A stretch of DNA of 64,000 nt from Dehalococcoidia bacterium (GTDB taxonomy: Bacteria; Chloroflexota; Dehalococcoidia; JAUQQI01). This document shows, piece after piece, positions 17,104 through 40,838 of the stretch (its first letter is position 1; each line of letters starts with the position of its first letter). The position numbers and the translations under genes are program-made. The notes beneath the pieces are model-generated. The model was not told the DNA's origin. It did not search any database and was given only the letters and a program-made list of their open reading frames with translations. The stretch covers positions 3,581 to 67,580 of the forward strand of contig DAOTYJ010000029.1 in assembly GCA_034434875.1 (NCBI GenBank), in the 5' to 3' direction.

Positions 17104-18441
17104 GTGGCCGACAACGCCGACCTTCCTAAGCCGGTCCGGCCCTCCCGCTGGTGGGAGCTTCTCGACGATGCCTCCACCCAGGATGTGGTCAGGGCCGTGG
17201 TCCTGGGCCGGGCCCGGTTGCCCCTCTGGAGGCGGTTGCTTGCCTTCCTCGGCCCGGCCTTCGTCGCCTCCGTCGCCTACATGGACCCCGGAAACTTCGC
17301 CACCAACATCTCGGCCGGGGCCCAGTACGGCTACATGCTCCTCTGGGTGGTGGTGATGAGCAACCTGATGGCCATGCTCATCCAGTCCCTCTCGGCCAAA
17401 CTGGGCATCGCCACCGGCCGGAGCCTCCCCGAGCTTATCCGGGACCATTTTCCCCGCCCCCTGGTGCTCTTCCTGTGGGTGGTTGCCGAGCTGGTGGCGA
17501 TGGCCACCGACCTGGCCGAGTTCCTCGGGGCGGCCCTGGGGCTCAACCGGCTTTTCGGCGTCCCGATGTTTCCGGCGGCCCTCATCACCGGCGTCCTCGC
17601 CTTTTTGATATTGAGCCTGGAGCATTACGGTTTCCGGCCCCTCGAGGCCGTCATCACCCTGTTCGTCGGGGTTATCGCCCTCTGCTATTTCGTCGAGGTC
17701 GCCTTCTTTGCCCACCCCGATTGGGGGGAGGTCGGGCTGGCGGTCATCCGGCCGCGGCTTACGGACCCCGAGAGCGTACTGCTGGCCGTCGGGATCCTGG
17801 GGGCCACGGTTATGCCCCACGTTATCTACCTGCACTCGGCCCTGACCCAGGGCCGGGTGGTGGTTCAGGGCGACGCCGCCAAGCGGCTGATTTTTCAATA
17901 CGAGGTGTTGGATGTTATCCTGGCAATGGGAATTGCCGGCCTGATCAACGGGGCGATGCTCATTATGGCGGCGGCGACCTTTCACCCGAGCGGCTACCAC
18001 GAGCTCACGGAGCTTACGGATGCTTACCTGACCCTGCGGCCGCTGCTCGGGCCGCTGGCCGCAACGGTCTTTGCCATCTCCCTCCTGGCTTCGGGCCTCT
18101 CGTCGTCGACGGTGGGTACCATGGCCGGGCAGGTTATCATGCAGGGGTTTCTCCGGCGCCAAATCCCCATCTGGGTGCGCCGGCTGGTTACGATGGTCCC
18201 GGCCATCGCGGTGATCGGGGCCGGGTTTGACCCGACCCGGACCCTGGTCATAAGCCAGGTTGTTTTATCCTTTGGGATTCCCTTCGCCCTGGTCCCCCTC
18301 ATCATCTTCACCCGCCGCCGGGAGCTGATGGGCCCCCTCGTCAACTCCCGCCTGACCACGGTCCTGGTGGGCGTCGTTGCCCTCGTCATCGTCGGCCTTA
18401 ACCTCTTTCTCCTTTACCGCACCCTGACCGAGGGCCTATGA
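17104..18441 (+). CDS. mntH: NRAMP-family Mn2+/Fe2+ transporter
   Basis: TM1 signature AYMDPGNFATNISAGAQYGYMLLWVV plus ~11 TM helices. Confidence 0.9.
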   Translation: MADNADLPKPVRPSRWWELLDDASTQDVVRAVVLGRARLPLWRRLLAFLGPAFVASVAYMDPGNFATNISAGAQYGYMLLWVVVMSNLMAMLIQSLSAKLGIATGRSLPELIRDHFPRPLVLFLWVVAELVAMATDLAEFLGAALGLNRLFGVPMFPAALITGVLAFLILSLEHYGFRPLEAVITLFVGVIALCYFVEVAFFAHPDWGEVGLAVIRPRLTDPESVLLAVGILGATVMPHVIYLHSALTQGRVVVQGDAAKRLIFQYEVLDVILAMGIAGLINGAMLIMAAATFHPSGYHELTELTDAYLTLRPLLGPLAATVFAISLLASGLSSSTVGTMAGQVIMQGFLRRQIPIWVRRLVTMVPAIAVIGAGFDPTRTLVISQVVLSFGIPFALVPLIIFTRRRELMGPLVNSRLTTVLVGVVALVIVGLNLFLLYRTLTEGL

Positions 18442-28842: not shown

Positions 28843-30460
28843 ATGACCTATAGCTGCGGCCGGCGCGAGTTTCTAAGGCTCGGTCTGGCGGCCGGGCTCG
28901 GCCTTACGGCCGGCTGTCTTCCGGCCTCCCCGCCGCCGGCCCCGGAACCGGCCCGGCCGGCCGGGGGACCCAGGTACGGCGGCATCCTCACGGTTCGGAT
29001 TGACGGGGACCCGCCCCACTTCGACATCCACCAGGCCTCCACCTCTTCAGTCCTCTGGCCCCTGGCCCCGTGCTATAACCTGCTGGTGCAGTATGACCCG
29101 CAGGACCCGGATAAAATCGTTCCCGACCTGGCCGAGCGCTGGGAAGTAAGCCCCGACGGCAAAATTTACACCTTCTATCTTAGGCGGGGCGTGAAGTTTC
29201 ACCACGGCAAGCCCTTCACCGCCCGGGACGTTCGGGCCAGCTTTGAGCGGGTCATCCGGCCGCCCCAGGGGGTTATCAGCCCCCGGCGGGGGGTGCTGGG
29301 GGTGGTGGACGGCATTGAGGTCGTCGACGATTATACGGTCCGGTTTATCCTTAAGCGGCCGGCCCCGTCGCTTTTGGCCAACCTGGCTCAGGGCTGGAAT
29401 GTCATCTACCCGGAAGATATCCTCGAGGCCAAGGGCGACATGAAAAAGGACGTGGTCGGCACCGGGCCCTTTAAATTCAAGGCCTACACGCCTGGGGTCA
29501 GCATCGAGCTTGACCGCAACCCCGAATACCACGTGCCAGGCCGGCCCTACCTGGACGGCATAAAATTTTTTGTAATTCCGGACCCGAACACGGCCCTGGC
29601 GGCTTTTATCTCAGGCCAGCTCCTGATGTACCGGCCGGGCGTGCCCGCCGAGGCCGAGGAGGCCAAACGGACCCTGGGTGACCGGATCGGGATTCAGTAA
29701 AGTAAACGGGCTCATCTTTGACTCTTTAAACCTCAATGCCCGGCGGAAGCCCTGGGACGACCCGCGGGTCCGGCAAGCCGTCTCCCTGGCCATCGACCGG
29801 AACGCGGCCATTGCCGTCCTCGCCCAGGGAGAGGGGGCAGTTGGGGGCGCCATGCCGGCCGGCGGGCAGTGGGCCCTGCCGGCCGATGAGCTCGGCAAGC
29901 TCCCCGGCTACCGGCCCGATAAGGGGGCCGAGCTGGCCGAGGCCCGCCGGCTGCTGGCGGAAGCCGGCTACGGTGGCCCCTTGCGGGCGACCCTCTTAAC
30001 CCGCAAGGGGGCCGAGTGGGAGCCGGCCTCGGTTTTCATCCGGGATCAGCTGGCCAGAATCGGCATCGACGCAACCCTTAACGTGCAGGAGACGGCCACG
30101 GCCTTCGGCCTGCTTAACCGGGGCGAATTCGACCTGGCCCCCTGGGTCCACGCCGTCGCCGTCGACGACCCGGACGCCATCTTCGGCGAGTTTTATCTGT
30201 GCGAAAGCGAACGGAACTATTCGGCCGTCTGCCTGTCGGAACTGGATGCCCTCTTTCAGCGTCAGTCCCAGGAGCCGAACCCGGCCGAACGGAAGAAGCT
30301 GGTCTGGGAGCTGGACCGCAAGGCGCTGCTGGGAAACATAAAAGTCATCATCGGGTGGCGCTTCGACCGCTTGTTGCACTGGCAGACGGTCAAAAACTAC
30401 CGCCGACATCCGAGTTTGTATAACAACCAAAAATTTCAGGACATCTGGCTCGAACAATAA
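28843..30460 (+). pseudogene. ABC transporter substrate-binding protein, family 5 (peptide/nickel type), with a Tat signal and lipobox; frameshifted near 29695
   Basis: RREFLRLGLAAGLGLTAGC (twin-Arg plus LTAGC lipobox) and SBP_bac_5 core. The two pieces 28843-29700 and 29678-30460 overlap at an AT-rich AGTAAAGTAAA patch. Confidence 0.75.
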
Positions 30461-34339: not shown

Positions 34340-34737
34340 ATGAGTGTCGTCGACCCATATCAAATCAAGGTCCGTTATGGGGAGATTCTAGTAGAGCAGA
34401 CCGAATGCGTGGCCGAAGGGGACCGGCTTCGACTCAAGACTCCTTTGCTGTTGCCCGATGGGCGCAATATTCAAGTTTACATCCGGACCGGCCCCAACTG
34501 GACGGTAGTAGTTTCAGACGGGGGGGTGCTACCGAACAACTTACGGTGTTTTCCAGTTTTGAGGACGAGCTACGAGCTCGGCATGCTAAACTCGTCGAGC
34601 TTGCCCACCAATTCGGGATTGATTACTCGGGTGGTGAGCTGAGGTTTATGTCCAACGATTTGGGTGAAGCCTTAAGACGCATTTCGACCCTGGCCAGGGC
34701 CGTACTTGGCGTTATGTGTATGTTGGTGGGGAATTAA
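34340..34737 (+). pseudogene. Hypothetical ~150-aa protein in a low-GC patch, split by a frameshift in a G7 run (34520-34526)
   Basis: Frames 34340-34642 and 34405-34737 join at GACGGGGGGGTG to give …NWTVVVSDGG/GATEQLTVFSSFEDELRARHAKLVELAHQF…. Own promoter-like TATAAT at ~34297. Confidence 0.45.
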
Positions 34738-34740
34738 GGC

Positions 34741-36044
34741 TTGGCTAGATTTGTCTTCAAAGAAGTCGTCAGGTCGGGAAAAGAGGTCCGAGCCAGAACT
34801 TTTATGTTGCCCTTCTCCGAACTTATTGGGCATCGGTTAGAGGCCGACGGTCGGTTCGAATTTAGGGTCGGGGACTTGGCCGTCGATCTTAAGACGCCCG
34901 AAGGACTCGTTACGGCCGGGCTCGTCCGGCCGAAAACGGGCGGGCCCAAAGCCTGTCCCTGGGACCGGGTCCGGGTGGACCGGTCGGCCCGACGCCTTCG
35001 GTTGGAGGGGGACGGCTTTTCCGGGCTTCCGGAGGAACAGGTGGGTCAACTGGTGCTGTTAAAAAGGGACATCCTGGATGCCTTGGTGATCGACCTGGCC
35101 AACCGCCGGGCGGCCCGGGCCAACGACCTCTGGCTGGGGGCGTCCGGTGGGAGGTGGCGGCTGGTTGGGGTTGAGTTGGGGCCGCGGGCGGTCCTCCGGC
35201 GGGTCAGTCGCGGCCTGCTGGGCCGGGGCCCTGGGTCGGGTTTGGTCCCCTGGGAGGATATTGAGCTTTTACGGGGGGACCCGGCGGCGGCCCGGGCCGG
35301 CCGCGACTACCACCGGCAACTGGCCAGGCTGAGTCCGGGGGAAATAGCCCGATTGCTTGTTCTGCTGCCTTACATCCATGCCGCCGAGGCGTTGACCCTG
35401 CTGCCGGAGTCGAAGGCGGCCGACGTATTTGAGGCCATGGGCCTTCAGCGGCAAGTTCAGGTGGCCGATGAGCTCGGCCGGGAAACTTTGGGGAGGCTGT
35501 TGAGCCTGATGGCCCCGAACCTGGCGGCCGCCTTTTTGCGACGGCTCGACCTGGCGCAGGCCCGGGAACTGCTGGAGGCCCTGCCCAAGGAGCGGGCGGT
35601 GAGGGTCGAACAGCTTCTCCGGTACCCGGCGGATACTGCCGGGGGCTAATGACCAACGAATTCGTTACCGTAGAAGCCGGCCTTACCGCCGGCGAGGCCC
35701 TGGCCGCCTTGCGGGATGCCCTGCGGGAGCCGGACTTTGTCTATTTTATCTACGCGGTTGCCGCCAAAAACGACCGACGGCTGGCAGGTGTCGTGAGCCT
35801 GCGGGACCTGGTGGTGGCCGATGCCGACCGTCCCCTCTCGGACCTTATGACCCGGGATGTGGAGGTTATTCGGGTCGGCGAGCGGGCCGACCGGGCCGCC
35901 TGGCGGGTCGTGGAAACCCAGCTGGCAGCCCTGCCGGTGGTTGACGAGGCGGGTCTGATTGTGGGGGTCTTGACGGTGGATGCGGCCGTGGCCGCAATTG
36001 CCCCGCCGGTCTGGCGGGCGCAGGCACCCCGGCTTTTTGCTTGA
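34741..36044 (+). pseudogene. Cytoplasmic PRC-barrel(x2) - MgtE_N - CBS-pair protein, with a -1 frameshift at 35645-35653
   Basis: MgtE_N helices …LSPGEIARLLVLLPYIHAAEALTLLPESKAADVFEAMG… ending YPADTAGG, then stop, then LMTNEFVTV (the canonical MgtE YPEDTAGGLMT junction lacks one T in GGCTAATGACC). CBS pair in 35649-36044. Confidence 0.65.
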
Positions 36045-36048
36045 GGGG

Positions 36049-37348
36049 GGAGGCTTTTTGGGGGGTTCGGCTGAACATTCGGGGACGCAGCGTGGTCCTG
36101 TACGGCCTGAGGCGGCCCCTGCCCGGTTTTCTTGGCTGGGTCCTAGTCTTAGGCCCGGGCATCATCGCCGCCTGCGCCGGGAACGATGCCGGTGGCATCG
36201 CCACCTACAGCTAGGTGGGTGCCCGGTTCGGCTACGACTTTCTTTGGCTGCTGGTGCCTATAACCGCGGCCCTGATGGTTATTCAAGAAACTTGCGCCCG
36301 GATTGGGGCCGCGACCGGGCGGGGTCTGCTGGACCTGGTCCGGGAGGTCTTCGGCCTGGGCTGGTCGCTGTTTGCGGTGGGGCTTGTGGCCATTGCCAAC
36401 GCCGGGCTTGCGGTGAGCGAGTTTTTGGGCATCGGGGCGGCGGCCGACCTTCTGGGCATCAGCCCCTACCTGGCGGCGCCCCTGACCGCCGGCCTTATCT
36501 GGTACCTGGTCGTCCACGGAAGCTACCGGTCGGTGGAGAAGATTTTCATTGGGATGGCCCTCGTTTTCCTGGCCTATCCGGCCTCGGCGGTTATAGCCGG
36601 GCCCGACTGGTCGGAAGTTGTCCGGGGGCTGGTGCCCCGGGTTCGGTTGGAGCCGGAGTTTCTGGCGATGGCCGTTGCCCTACTGGGGACAACCATTACC
36701 CCGTACATGCAGGTTTTCCAGCAGGGTTCGGTGGTTGATAAGGGTGTGAGCCGGGCCCGCTCCGGTCCGTAGCGGGCGGATGCTTACCTGGGGTCGGCGA
36801 TTTCAAACCTGGTTTCGGTATTTATTATCGTTGCCACCGCCGCAACCCTCTATGGGTCGGGAACCGGGGTGGAAAGCGCCGCGGATGCGGCCCGGGCCCT
36901 GCGGCCGGTGGCGGGGGATGCGGCTGAGGTCCTGTTCGCCGTCGGACTGTTTGGGGCGTCGGCCCTGGCCGCGGGAGTTCTGCCCCTGGCCACCGCCTAC
37001 GCCGTAAGCGAAACTTTCGGCCTGCCGAAAGGGGTGGACCTGGATTTCCGGCGGGCACCGGTCTTTCTCTGGACCTTCACCGGCCTCATCGGTTTCGCGG
37101 GGGGTGTGCCCTTAATCCCCGGTCTGCCCGTTATCGACCTGCTGGTCAGGTTGCAGGTGCTCAACGGCCTGCTTTTGCCGGCTGTGTTATTCTTCGTCCT
37201 CCGCTTGGCCAACAACCCGAAACTGATGGGCAGGCTTAAAAATAAGCGGACCGAGAACGCCGTGGGCTGGGGAAGCCTCGGGCTTATATCCCTGGCGGCG
37301 GGAAGCTACCTGGCCGCCCAGCTTGGGTCTATCCTCGGGCCCGGCTAG
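36049..37348 (+). pseudogene. NRAMP-family-like divalent cation transporter, immediately downstream of the MgtE_N-CBS gene, with two in-frame TAG codons
   Basis: …LGPGIIAACAGNDAGGIATYS*VGARFGYDFLWLL… parallels Nramp TM1 DPGNFATNISAGAQYGY, with the TAG at the conserved Gln position. Second TAG at ~36770 within …SRARSGP*RADAYLGSAISNLVSVFII…. The C-terminal half 36869-37348 is in the same frame. Confidence 0.65.
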
Positions 37349-37418: not shown

Positions 37419-37751
37419 ATGAGTGGAGGTTCGGTTAGTGAATTGGGATACGGTGAGCATTTCCGAGCGGAACCTGGGCCGGGGCAGTCGGATGCTGCGG
37501 GTTCGGGGGGCGGGCTTCAGCCTGGCGCTGGTGATCCCGGCGCCGCCCCGGCCGCCCAGACCCCGGCCGAATTTTATTCCGCCCGCCTTGGCCCGGCTGA
37601 GCGGCCCCTCTTCGAGCACGCCTTAAAGCTTGAGGGCCTGGACCAGGAGATCGCCCTGCTCCGCCTCCGGATTCGGCAGGACCTGGACGACCCCAAGGGC
37701 CTGATGCGGGGGATCGACCTGCTGGTTAAGGCCCTGCGGACCCGCTACTGA
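37419..37751 (+). CDS. Hypothetical 110-aa protein upstream of the terminase (small-terminase role not demonstrable)
   Basis: ORF with a Gly/Pro-rich N-terminus and helical C-terminus …LEGLDQEIALLRLRIRQDLDDPKGLMRGIDLLVKALRTRY. Confidence 0.3.
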   Translation: MSGGSVSELGYGEHFRAEPGPGQSDAAGSGGGLQPGAGDPGAAPAAQTPAEFYSARLGPAERPLFEHALKLEGLDQEIALLRLRIRQDLDDPKGLMRGIDLLVKALRTRY

Positions 37752-37896
37752 CTTGGGCCCGACCAGTCGGAGCGGATTTACCGGGCCATCGTGGAGGTGC
37801 TGGAGGGCCTTGGGGAGGGGCTGGACGGCCCCGCCGGCGCGCCGGAGTGATGGTGAGCGGGGCGGTGTTTCGCCTCGGGCGGGGCGGAGGCGGGCG

Positions 37897-38136
37897 GTGA
37901 GCGGCCTGCGGGAAGCCGTCGCCCAGCTTACCCGGCGGCTCGTCCGCCCGACTCCGCCCCGCCCCCCGCTGCCGGAGGTTCAGCCGTGCTGCGCCTATGA
38001 GCTGGTCACCCGGCAGATGCTGGAGGATATGCGGGCCGAGCTGGCCGAGCTCAAGGCCCGGGTAAACGGGTTGCTTTTCATGCTGGCCGGGGCGATCCTG
38101 CTGGACGTTATCCTGCGGCTGGCTCGGCCGGGATGA
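37897..38136 (+). CDS. Small coiled-coil protein with a C-terminal TM anchor; its stop overlaps the TerL start (ATGATG)
   Basis: VSGLREAVAQLTRRL…CCAYELVTRQMLEDMRAELAELKARVNGLLFMLAGAILLDVILRLARPG; start codon uncertain. Confidence 0.35.
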   Translation: MSGLREAVAQLTRRLVRPTPPRPPLPEVQPCCAYELVTRQMLEDMRAELAELKARVNGLLFMLAGAILLDVILRLARPG

Positions 38137-39509
38137 TGCCGCCCCTGCGGCCCTACCAGCTGGAGCCCTTCCGGGCCATCTGGGGGTCGGTTCGGGCGGG
38201 GGCCGGCTTAAGCTTTTCGGTGATGATGGCCCGGCAGGCGGGCAAGAATGAGCTTTCGGCTCAGCTGGAGGTTCGGCTGCTTTTAAGGTTTGCCCCCTTT
38301 GGGGGCGACGGGATAAAGGCCAGCCCCACCTTTCGGCCCCAAACCTTAAATTCCCTGGACCGGCTTAAGGCTAGGCTGGATGATGCCGGCCTGGGGGGCC
38401 TCTGGCGGGCCGAGCGGGGCTACACCGTGCGCCTCGGCCGGGCCCGGATGGTCTTTCTTTCGGCCGAGCCCTCCGCCCGGGTGATGGGCCACACCGCCGG
38501 CCTCATCCTGGAGGTGGACGAAGCCCAGGACGTGCTTGCGGAGAAGTTTGACAAGGACTTCCGGCCGATGGGGGCGGCCGCCAACGCCACCACCGTCTAT
38601 TACGGCACCCCCTGGGACGGAAATTCCCTGCTGGAACAGGTCAAGGCCCGGCATCTGGAGCTGGAGGGCCGGGACGGGATTCGCCGCCACTTTGAGTACG
38701 ACTGGGAGACGGTGGCCCGCTACAATCCGGCCTCCGGCCGCTACGTGCGGGCCGAGCGGGCGCGCCTGGGCGAGGCCCATCCCCTCTTTCAGACCCAGTA
38801 TGCGCTCAGGCCGGTGGCCGCCCTCAGCCGGACCTTCGATGGGGCCGACCTGCGCCTCCTGGCCGGCGAGCACCCCCGGCTTCTGGGCCCGGCGGCCGGG
38901 GAGCAGTACGTTGTGGGGCTGGACCTGGCCGGCCAGGCCTGGGACGAGCTGCGGGGGCTGGGCGGCTGGGACCCAGCCGGACGCCGGGACTCGACGGTGG
39001 TTACGGTGGGCCGGGTGAGGACCGGCAATTTCGGCCCGGTCCTTGAAATCGTCCACCACGAGGTCTTTACCGGCCTGCGCCACGACATCCTGGTCCCCAG
39101 GCTGGTGGAGGTCATCCGCCGCTGGCGGCCGGAGGCCGTGGCCGCCGACGCCACCGGTCTGGGCCAGCCCATCGTCGGCCTGCTGGGGGCCGAATTCGGG
39201 CGGCGGGTCGTCTTGCCGGTGGTGTTCACGGCGGCCCGGAAAAGCGGCCTTGCGGCCGAGCTTATCGCGGCGGTGAAGGCCGGCCGGCTCAAGGTCTATG
39301 CGGACGCTTCGGCCGGGCGGGCCGAGTTCCTGCGCCAGTTCGGGCTGGCCCGGACGAGGGCCCGGCCGGGGGGCCACCTGGAGGTGGCGGTGGACCCGGC
39401 CGAAGGCCACGATGACTTTTTAATTTCGGCCGCCCTGGGCCTGGAGGCCGCCGGGCAGGTCCGGCCCCGGCGGGCCCGGGGCTGCCCGGCGGCGGGGGCC
39501 GGGCCGTGA
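38133..39509 (+). CDS. Phage terminase large subunit (TerL)
   Basis: N-terminal ATPase (P-loop-like ARQAGKN, Walker B LILEVDEAQDV) and C-terminal RNaseH-like nuclease (YVVGLDLAGQ…, …HDDFLISAALGL). Confidence 0.8.
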   Translation: MMPPLRPYQLEPFRAIWGSVRAGAGLSFSVMMARQAGKNELSAQLEVRLLLRFAPFGGDGIKASPTFRPQTLNSLDRLKARLDDAGLGGLWRAERGYTVRLGRARMVFLSAEPSARVMGHTAGLILEVDEAQDVLAEKFDKDFRPMGAAANATTVYYGTPWDGNSLLEQVKARHLELEGRDGIRRHFEYDWETVARYNPASGRYVRAERARLGEAHPLFQTQYALRPVAALSRTFDGADLRLLAGEHPRLLGPAAGEQYVVGLDLAGQAWDELRGLGGWDPAGRRDSTVVTVGRVRTGNFGPVLEIVHHEVFTGLRHDILVPRLVEVIRRWRPEAVAADATGLGQPIVGLLGAEFGRRVVLPVVFTAARKSGLAAELIAAVKAGRLKVYADASAGRAEFLRQFGLARTRARPGGHLEVAVDPAEGHDDFLISAALGLEAAGQVRPRRARGCPAAGAGP

Positions 39510-39521
39510 AGGAGGATTTCG

Positions 39522-40838
39522 ATGGCTGAGGACCTGCCCCGGCTGATCCGACGGCTGGACCTGGACCGGATGCGCCGCTACCAGGAGGCGCTGGGGCTTT
39601 ACGCCGGCACCCACTGGCCCGAGGGGCCCGGCCGCGGCCGCCGGCGGACCCTGACCGTGAACTACATCCGAACGGTGATTGATAAGGTTGCGACTTACTT
39701 AATGGCGGGGCGGGCGGTGGTAATTGAGCCGGCCGACCCGTCCGAGGCGGCCCTGGCCCGGGCCACCGAGGCCGCCCTGCGGGAGGTGGCCGAGCAGAAC
39801 GAGCTGGACTGGCTGGAGCTGGAGACCGAGGTCGATACGGCGGTGCTGGGCGACGGGGCTTATAAAGTCTGGTGGGACCCCGGGGCCGGGCAGGTTCGGG
39901 TTTCGGCCCCGGATGTCCAGGGCCTGTACGCCTGGCCGGACCCGGCCTCGCCCTTTGGGCCCCGGCGGGCCGTTCTGCGCCAGCTGCTGCCGGCCGCCGA
40001 GGTTGAGGCCCGGTTCGGGGTTGGGGCCGACCGGGAAGAGGTGGAGGTTATCGAGGACTGGACGGCCGGGCAGTTTCAGGTCTGGGTGGACGGCCGGCCC
40101 CGGCCGGCCCGGCCGAACCCTTACGGGTTTATTCCCGTTGTGGTCTTCCCCAACGTGCGCAGGCCCAAATCTTTCTGGGGCGAATCGGATGCGCTGGTCC
40201 TTAAGGAGGTCCAGCTGGAGCTTAACCGGGCCTTCACCCAGCTTTCCCGGATAATGGAGGTTTCGGGCAACCCCATTGCGGTCCTTTCGGGGGTTACCGA
40301 GGCCGAGGATATTGCCGTCCAGCCGGGGGCCGTCTGGACCCTGCCGGAGGATGCCAAGGCTTATCTGCTGGACCTGCTGGCCAACGGGGCGGCCCAGCTC
40401 CACCTGGAATATATCAATGCCCTCTACCGGATGCTTCACGACCAGGCCGAGGTTCCCCGGACGGCCTTTGGGGACAATCAGCGCAACCTTTCGGGGGTGG
40501 CGCTGGAGGTGGAGATGCCGCCCCTTTACCAGCGGGTTCAGCGCAAGCGGCTCATCCGGACGGCGGTTTACAAGCGGCGAAACGAGTTTATCCTGCGGCT
40601 TTTAGAGCAGTTCACCGGGCGGCGCTTTCTGCACCGGCAGCGGGTGGTGTGGGGGCAGGTGACGCCCCGGGACGAGTCCCGGCGGGTGGCCGATTTTGGG
40701 CTGCTGGTGGAGCGGGGCCTGCGGTCCCGGCGGGGGCTGATGGACGAGCTTGGGGTGGCCGACGCCGAGGCCGAATTCGGCCGCTGGCTCGAAGAGCAGA
40801 ACCGACTGGGGCCCGGTCGCGGCGAAGGTCAAGGTTAG
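39522..40838 (+). CDS. Phage portal protein
   Basis: ~440 aa, placed directly after TerL; N-terminal …RRYQEALGLYAGTHW…RTLTVNYIRTVIDKVATYL… pattern typical of portal proteins. Confidence 0.7.
   Translation: MAEDLPRLIRRLDLDRMRRYQEALGLYAGTHWPEGPGRGRRRTLTVNYIRTVIDKVATYLMAGRAVVIEPADPSEAALARATEAALREVAEQNELDWLELETEVDTAVLGDGAYKVWWDPGAGQVRVSAPDVQGLYAWPDPASPFGPRRAVLRQLLPAAEVEARFGVGADREEVEVIEDWTAGQFQVWVDGRPRPARPNPYGFIPVVVFPNVRRPKSFWGESDALVLKEVQLELNRAFTQLSRIMEVSGNPIAVLSGVTEAEDIAVQPGAVWTLPEDAKAYLLDLLANGAAQLHLEYINALYRMLHDQAEVPRTAFGDNQRNLSGVALEVEMPPLYQRVQRKRLIRTAVYKRRNEFILRLLEQFTGRRFLHRQRVVWGQVTPRDESRRVADFGLLVERGLRSRRGLMDELGVADAEAEFGRWLEEQNRLGPGRGEGQG

Follow-up and report, generated by a model that had tools for sequence, protein, structure and literature searches.

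Why would a bacterium encode the cytoplasmic regulatory part of a magnesium channel without the channel's pore, and why would that gene sit directly in front of a gene for an Nramp-family metal carrier? These questions are raised by two adjoining genes in a 64,000-nucleotide stretch of DNA, hereafter the window, from a Dehalococcoidia bacterium (GenBank assembly GCA_034434875.1, contig DAOTYJ010000029.1, positions 3,581 to 67,580). The original prediction, made from the letters alone, had described a soluble MgtE-type Mg2+-sensing module (gene 1) coupled through a TTGA overlap to an Nramp-family carrier (gene 2), perhaps an NRMT-like paralogue of a second, intact mntH at 17.1 kb, with both genes of the pair disrupted. 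The pairing, the overlap, the disruptions, the NRMT-like character and the second mntH are all borne out by the analysis described here, which leads us to conclude, with considerable confidence, that this region holds a known two-gene operon, the nrmT operon, in a copy that was inactivated recently.

A poreless MgtE domain and an NRMT-type carrier

What does gene 1 encode? When its two frames are joined across the frameshift, Pfam recognizes MgtE_N (1.4e-17) and two CBS domains (2.3e-12), and the family profile matches the cytoplasmic domains of MgtE (2yvy and 2oux) at ~1e-42. The MgtE equivalog of NCBIfam, TIGR00400, scores 115, below its cut-off of 232.75, and covers only profile positions 22–248 of 450; the protein stops ~14 residues past the CBS pair and has no transmembrane pore. 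Nor is such a gene normally fused to a pore elsewhere, as the best 120 of 914 homologues are proteins of ~416 residues that carry MgtE_N and CBS only and are not fragments of MgtE channels. The gene 1 product, at ~413 residues, is ~50% identical to these homologues over its full length. In other words, gene 1 shares the MgtE_N domain and CBS pair of the MgtE channel's cytoplasmic domain (Thermus thermophilus 2YVY/2YVX; 8GPV, 8GPS) but differs from MgtE in lacking the pore, in its added N-terminal domains, predicted to be PRC-like, and in having Ala in place of the plug-helix ligands and Leu in place of F227.

Two details of the original prediction concerning gene 1 need correction. The start had been placed at TTG 34741; the true start is ATG 34804, and homologues align from MLPFSEL. 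The motif YPADTAGGLMT had been taken for the end of the protein; it is actually the junction between MgtE_N and the CBS pair, and the protein ends in ...QAPRLFA. The N-terminal ~165 residues of the gene 1 family are predicted to adopt a PRC-barrel-like fold. A confident AlphaFold2 model of P0002, a 50%-identical homologue (predicted local distance difference test score, pLDDT, 87.7), has beta-rich segments at residues 11–69 and 97–159, followed by the helical MgtE_N and the CBS pair, with the last six C-terminal residues disordered.

Gene 2 is, by its sequence, a member of the NRMT clade. It matches the Pfam Nramp model (PF01566, 5.7e-90) over profile positions 1–356 of 357, and NCBIfam Nramp models match as well, so that the gene does not fail as an Nramp homologue, the outcome that could have undone the prediction. 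The closest solved structure by sequence is EleNRMT, the Mg2+/Mn2+ transporter of Eggerthella lenta (7QIA, PMC8806188), at E 3.9e-94 and 319 bits, versus at most 99 bits (~1e-27) for classical MntH structures, DraNramp reaching only ~99 bits. NRMTs are defined by DxxG in helix 1, not DxxN, and by TxxA/T in helix 6, not A/CxxM (Ramanadane et al. 2022, PMC8806188). Because its transmembrane helix 1 (TM1) carries DAGG and its helix 6 (TM6) TTIT, gene 2 fits this definition in the TxxT form.

The individual metal-site residues tell the same story. In TM1, EleNRMT and gene 2 share the segment AGNDAGG without a single difference. The original prediction had read this segment as a replacement for the classical DPGN; the metal-binding Asp, however, is not replaced (D49 is kept, and D-A-G-G is the DxxG). 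Thr at EleNRMT T224 and Gln at Q379 (Q372 in gene 2) are common to both proteins. EleNRMT has TxxA, whereas gene 2 and its 120 closest homologues, Nramp proteins of ~462 residues, have TxxT with Thr at A227; gene 2 further differs in containing two nonsense codons. Among those 120 homologues the TM1 Asp, the final Gly of the motif and the Thr at both TM6 positions are kept in every one. Classical Mn2+/H+ symporters of the MntH/Nramp type, such as DraNramp (5KTE) and the window's own mntH, have the same LeuT-type fold and belong to the same Pfam family as gene 2, but they carry DPGN and MPH where gene 2 has DAGG and TTITPY.

Two conserved segments of the pair are candidate contact motifs. One is the tail of the soluble partner, APxSWRxQAPRVFS, which is almost invariant in the family alignment (loci L007–L086) and disordered according to AlphaFold; the other is RLNIRGRSV near the N-terminus of the transporter, just ahead of the point at which the alignment between the window and EleNRMT begins.

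A conserved pair that has been described before

Is the neighborhood of the two genes a coincidence? We scanned GTDB, one genome per species, and obtained 80 loci encoding the soluble protein, a set to which the window's own genome does not belong. An Nramp homologue lies directly 3' of the soluble gene, on the same strand, in 78 of these 80 species-level loci (78 of the 79 that are informative); of the two exceptions, one is at a contig edge and one (L060) is without the transporter. Looked up from the transporter side, the partner was found upstream with a 4-bp overlap in three out of three cases. Where gene calls were read, the surrounding genes vary from locus to locus. Start and stop codons overlap by 4 bp at 54 of 67 analysable junctions, as ATGA (44), GTGA (9) or TTGA (1). 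The window's TTGA, a 4-bp overlap that joins gene 1's TGA stop to gene 2's TTG start, is a rare variant of the usual junction; at the locus of P0121, the intact nearest relative of gene 2 (74% identical), the end of the upstream CBS gene overlaps the transporter start as GTGA. The pairing is not a matter of chance; it is nearly obligatory and translationally coupled across species.

The homologues listed for the two genes are mainly from Chloroflexota, Thermomicrobiales and Acidobacteriota (Pyrinomonadaceae), with some in Verrucomicrobiota. Orphan soluble homologues with no adjacent Nramp gene also exist (L005/L006, P0067; L060); at L005, for example, the soluble gene is followed by an open reading frame of 58 residues and then by purine-catabolism genes on the opposite strand. 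Locus L009 belongs to a cultured nitrite oxidizer, Nitrolancea hollandica Lb (NZ_CAGS01000346.1), which has full-length matches to both genes, spanning the whole 416-residue partner query and positions 9–467 of the transporter query.

The pairing itself is already described, and in kind the system in the window is not new. Shin et al. (2014, PLoS Genet, PMC4072509) named the NrmT clade and reported that most NrmT genes adjoin a gene for an MgtE cytoplasmic domain; in one Clostridium acetobutylicum operon, Ca_c0685, this partner is encoded by two genes. The window has the same pair in the same order as those operons, with the MgtE-like soluble gene upstream of the Nramp-related transporter. It differs from them in that both genes are inactivated and in that the partner of its subgroup, at ~416 residues, has a predicted PRC-like N-terminal extension of ~165 residues that is absent from the paper's account. 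This extension would mark the partner in a large subgroup of Chloroflexota and Acidobacteriota. In the library that we searched, no literature after Shin et al. 2014 linking NrmT with an MgtE-domain partner was found.

What might the partner do?

Taken together with the known systems, the architecture suggests how an intact operon of this kind might work. Gene 1 would provide a poreless cytoplasmic protein of ~413 residues, composed of a PRC-like N-terminus, MgtE_N and a CBS pair and homologous to the regulatory domain of MgtE; gene 2 would provide an NRMT carrier with a DxxG/TxxT metal site, its translation coupled to that of gene 1. EleNRMT has been shown to transport Mg2+ and Mn2+ with no coupling to protons, and the transporter of intact relatives most likely imports one or both of these ions in the same way. 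By analogy with the cytoplasmic domain of MgtE, the partner may dimerize via its CBS pair and sense a cytoplasmic cation; acting in trans, it would most likely sense a divalent cation and hold the carrier back whenever that cation is plentiful. Docking on the carrier through the PRC-like domains or the C-terminal tail is speculative. In the window, the one-base deletion and the two nonsense codons have destroyed both genes and left the unit non-functional. Manganese uptake could be covered by the classical MntH, whose gene lies 17 kb upstream.

How well do the regulatory residues of MgtE survive in the partner? We mapped them onto 109 family members, using T. thermophilus numbering unless noted, the list of regulatory Mg2+ ligands from ChMgtE (PMC10200709), and an ATP site of Y170, R187, D188, N203 and F227 (PMC5529423). 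Several of the substitutions found, together with other observations, count against the account given above. The position of the adenine-stacking F227 is Leu in 96 of the 109 members and in the window, the plug-helix D247 and the D250-equivalent are Ala in the family, and the D226 position is His in 63 of the 109. An M-box riboswitch (Rfam), sought in the window and 16 related loci, was found in none, and therefore Mg2+ specificity is not indicated; the M-box marks an Mg2+-specific subset of NRMTs, not the whole clade. The pair of Acidobacterium capsulatum, which like that of the window has no riboswitch, has been studied directly: its transporter rescued an Mn2+ uptake defect, and co-expression of its partner left Mg2+ rescue unimproved (PMC4072509). 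Finally, fragments may still be expressed from the decayed pair in the window.

The same mapping bears on the "Mg/ATP sensing" of the original prediction, of which the homology to the MgtE domain stands, while the ATP site and the plug-helix ligands do not. R187 and D188 are conserved in the soluble family, N203 is variable, and the F227A mutation in MgtE eliminates ATP binding (PMC5529423). With Leu at F227 and a variable N203, Mg/ATP sensing is not established, and it is unlikely, judging from these residues, that the partner binds ATP in the manner of MgtE. As for cations, 92–108 of the 109 members have an acidic residue at the positions of E59, D91, D95 and E166, and the position of E201 (ChMgtE numbering) is not acidic. 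The pattern suggests that cation sensing by the partner may have been retuned.

Might the soluble protein of intact pairs have a task other than gating, either as a chaperone for metal or in the sensing of Mn2+ or some other ligand? Shin et al. (2014, PMC4072509), in speculating on the partner's role, named both feedback regulation and a chaperone function; the A. capsulatum pair behaved as an Mn2+ system, and the loss of the plug-helix carboxylates and the frequent His at D226 fit such a role. The N-domain acidic residues of the Mg4, Mg5 and Mg7 sites of MgtE are kept, however, which counts against this reading, and we regard the chaperone or alternative-ligand role as possible, if somewhat unlikely. 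Returning to the cation sensor acting in trans, a more specific proposal, which we put forward tentatively and consider rather unlikely as it stands, is that the PRC-MgtE_N-CBS protein of intact relatives is a detachable gating subunit of NRMT that docks by its PRC-like domains or its APxSWRxQAPRVFS tail, its sensor having been retuned from MgtE-style Mg2+/ATP, possibly to Mn2+, with Leu in place of Phe, Ala in place of the plug-helix Asp and His in place of Asp226. If this were true, the window would add only a dead example. What the comparative results do is to sharpen the question of the partner's role, by setting a near-obligatory, coupled pairing beside the loss of the MgtE ATP site and plug-helix ligands. 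N. hollandica, cultured and with an intact pair, is suited to experiments on partner function.

Inactivation of both genes

Three lesions, located in Table 1, interrupt the pair. When the missing base is restored in GGGGGC of gene 1, the frame reads D-T-A-G-G-L-M-T, as in the family consensus DTAGGIMT, and all 25 aligned homologues are continuous through DTAGG-[IL]MT. In gene 2, the position of the first TAG (codon 58) is S, Q or A in homologues. The position of the second (codon 244) is Glu in 119 of 120 homologues, with GAG in the relative L087; codon 241, nearby, corresponds to Tyr in 120 of 120 (TAC in L087) and is Ser in the window. In an annotation of this genome, the two genes belong among the pseudogenes.

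How long ago did the pair decay? The window proteins depart from highly conserved columns at 9–11% of them, gene 1 at 7 of 78, and the intact nearest relative P0121 departs at 22 of 184. Because the divergence of the window at conserved columns is not above that of the most divergent intact relatives, the inactivation is recent. Long-term decay was considered and rejected, as the equal divergence of an intact protein points to divergence of the lineage and not to pseudogene drift.

Might only the transporter be dead, with the soluble protein persisting as a PRC-MgtE_N piece and a CBS-pair piece, translationally coupled, that have a function of their own? The break coincides exactly with the domain boundary, and the pieces meet in a stop/start overlap, TAATG; the homologue in the C. 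acetobutylicum operon is naturally split; and soluble homologues that have no transporter are known. The window copy, however, has Ala (A243) at the D95 position, which is Asp in 108 of the 109 members, and Asn (N239) at the D91 position; the departures of gene 1 from conserved columns point in the same direction, and its sole known genetic partner is destroyed. We consider a surviving two-piece protein improbable.

That the lesions are errors of sequencing or assembly, the pair being intact and functional in the organism, is very improbable. The frameshift does sit in a G5 homopolymer, a typical site of indel errors, and the SBP_bac_5 gene nearby is frameshifted too. Two of the lesions, however, came about by substitution of a base, giving TAG, and such changes are atypical as errors; in addition, two assemblies of other samples, ENA ERZ650669 (SPAdes) and Logan SRR7067823, are colinear with the window and carry the same lesions in identical fragments, with two mismatches (ENA) and one (Logan) to the window, none of them within the two genes. 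On these grounds assembly error was rejected. Records at JGI also carry the fragment open reading frames of the pair; the idea that they represent a separate strain with the same breaks was rejected, as the sequences are identical apart from start-codon translation and represent another assembly, not another lineage. Least credible of all is the idea that recoding still yields full-length proteins, the ribosome slipping by -1 at C-GGG-GGC and reading through TAG: a slip at GGG-GGC would give back DTAGG-LMT exactly and both internal stops are TAG, but the heptamer departs from the canonical X-XXY-YYZ form, relatives have sense codons in single open reading frames, the invariant Tyr near the second stop is also gone, and an alternative code or TAG suppression was rejected because TAG closes 12 of the 40 long open reading frames in the window as well as gene 2 itself and no tRNA gene, hence no suppressor tRNA, was found in the 64-kb window.

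Table 1. Positions of the nrmT pair, its lesions and other features in the window
Feature	Position	Strand	Description
Gene 1, NrmT soluble partner	34804-36044	+	PRC-like beta-rich N-terminus (predicted), MgtE_N, CBS pair; now open reading frames of 281 and 131 residues; frame 1 open up to TAA 35647-35649, other frame from ATG 35649 to TGA 36042-36044
Beta-rich N-terminal region of gene 1	34804-35300	+	Predicted two small beta domains, PRC-barrel-like fold
MgtE_N of gene 1	35332-35634	+	PF03448, residues 198-298 of the 434-residue translation starting at 34741
Lesion 1	35641-35649	+	One base missing in GGGGGC (35641-35646); TAA 35647-35649 overlaps the ATG (35649-35651) at which the CBS fragment starts
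CBS-pair part of gene 1	35649-36044	+	CBS matches; conserved C-terminal tail ...APPVWRAQAPRLFA, aligned to the family C-terminus
Gene 2, NRMT-clade SLC11/Nramp transporter pseudogene	36041-37348	+	TTG start 36041, TAG stop 37346-37348
TM1 metal site of gene 2	36185-36196	+	D49-A-G-G52, DxxG type; aligned to EleNRMT D55, G58
Lesion 2	36212-36214	+	In-frame TAG, codon 58 of gene 2; CAG (Gln) in nearest relative L087
TM6 metal site of gene 2	36689-36700	+	T217-T-I-T220, TxxT type; aligned to EleNRMT T224, A227
Lesion 3	36761-36772	+	In-frame TAG, codon 244 of gene 2 (36770-36772), and Ser codon 241 (36761-36763)
Second Nramp gene, classical mntH, intact	17104-18441	+	Nramp 1.4e-128; DPGN at residue 61, MPH at 237; outside the operon
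SBP_bac_5 gene	28843-30460	+	Frameshift giving open reading frames of 285 and 260 residues (Pfam positions 1-184 and 196-364)
Terminase large subunit	38133-39509	+
Portal	39522-40838	+

Surroundings of the pair

The frameshifted SBP_bac_5 gene, which lies upstream of the nrmT pair at a distance of ~5 kb and is a second pseudogene, has the same form in the ENA assembly. On the other side, the pair is followed directly by genes for a terminase large subunit and a portal protein and then by a Wzz/tyrosine-kinase-like gene; beyond the portal gene no other phage gene was found, and the two are probably a prophage remnant. The notion that the nrmT pair is prophage cargo was rejected, given that only terminase and portal follow before the Wzz-type kinase gene. 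Between 30000 and 38000 the G+C content falls to ~0.636–0.66, against a window mean of 0.69. The dip takes in genes for TetR and ArsR regulators and small membrane proteins, both nrmT operon genes, and the first part of the phage remnant. The small open reading frames that flank the pair at 34340-34642 (+) and 37419-38136 (+) (100, 110 and 127 residues) match nothing in Pfam or PHROG. The sole base difference from the window that is common to both other assemblies, at ~34496, lies within the one of 100 residues.

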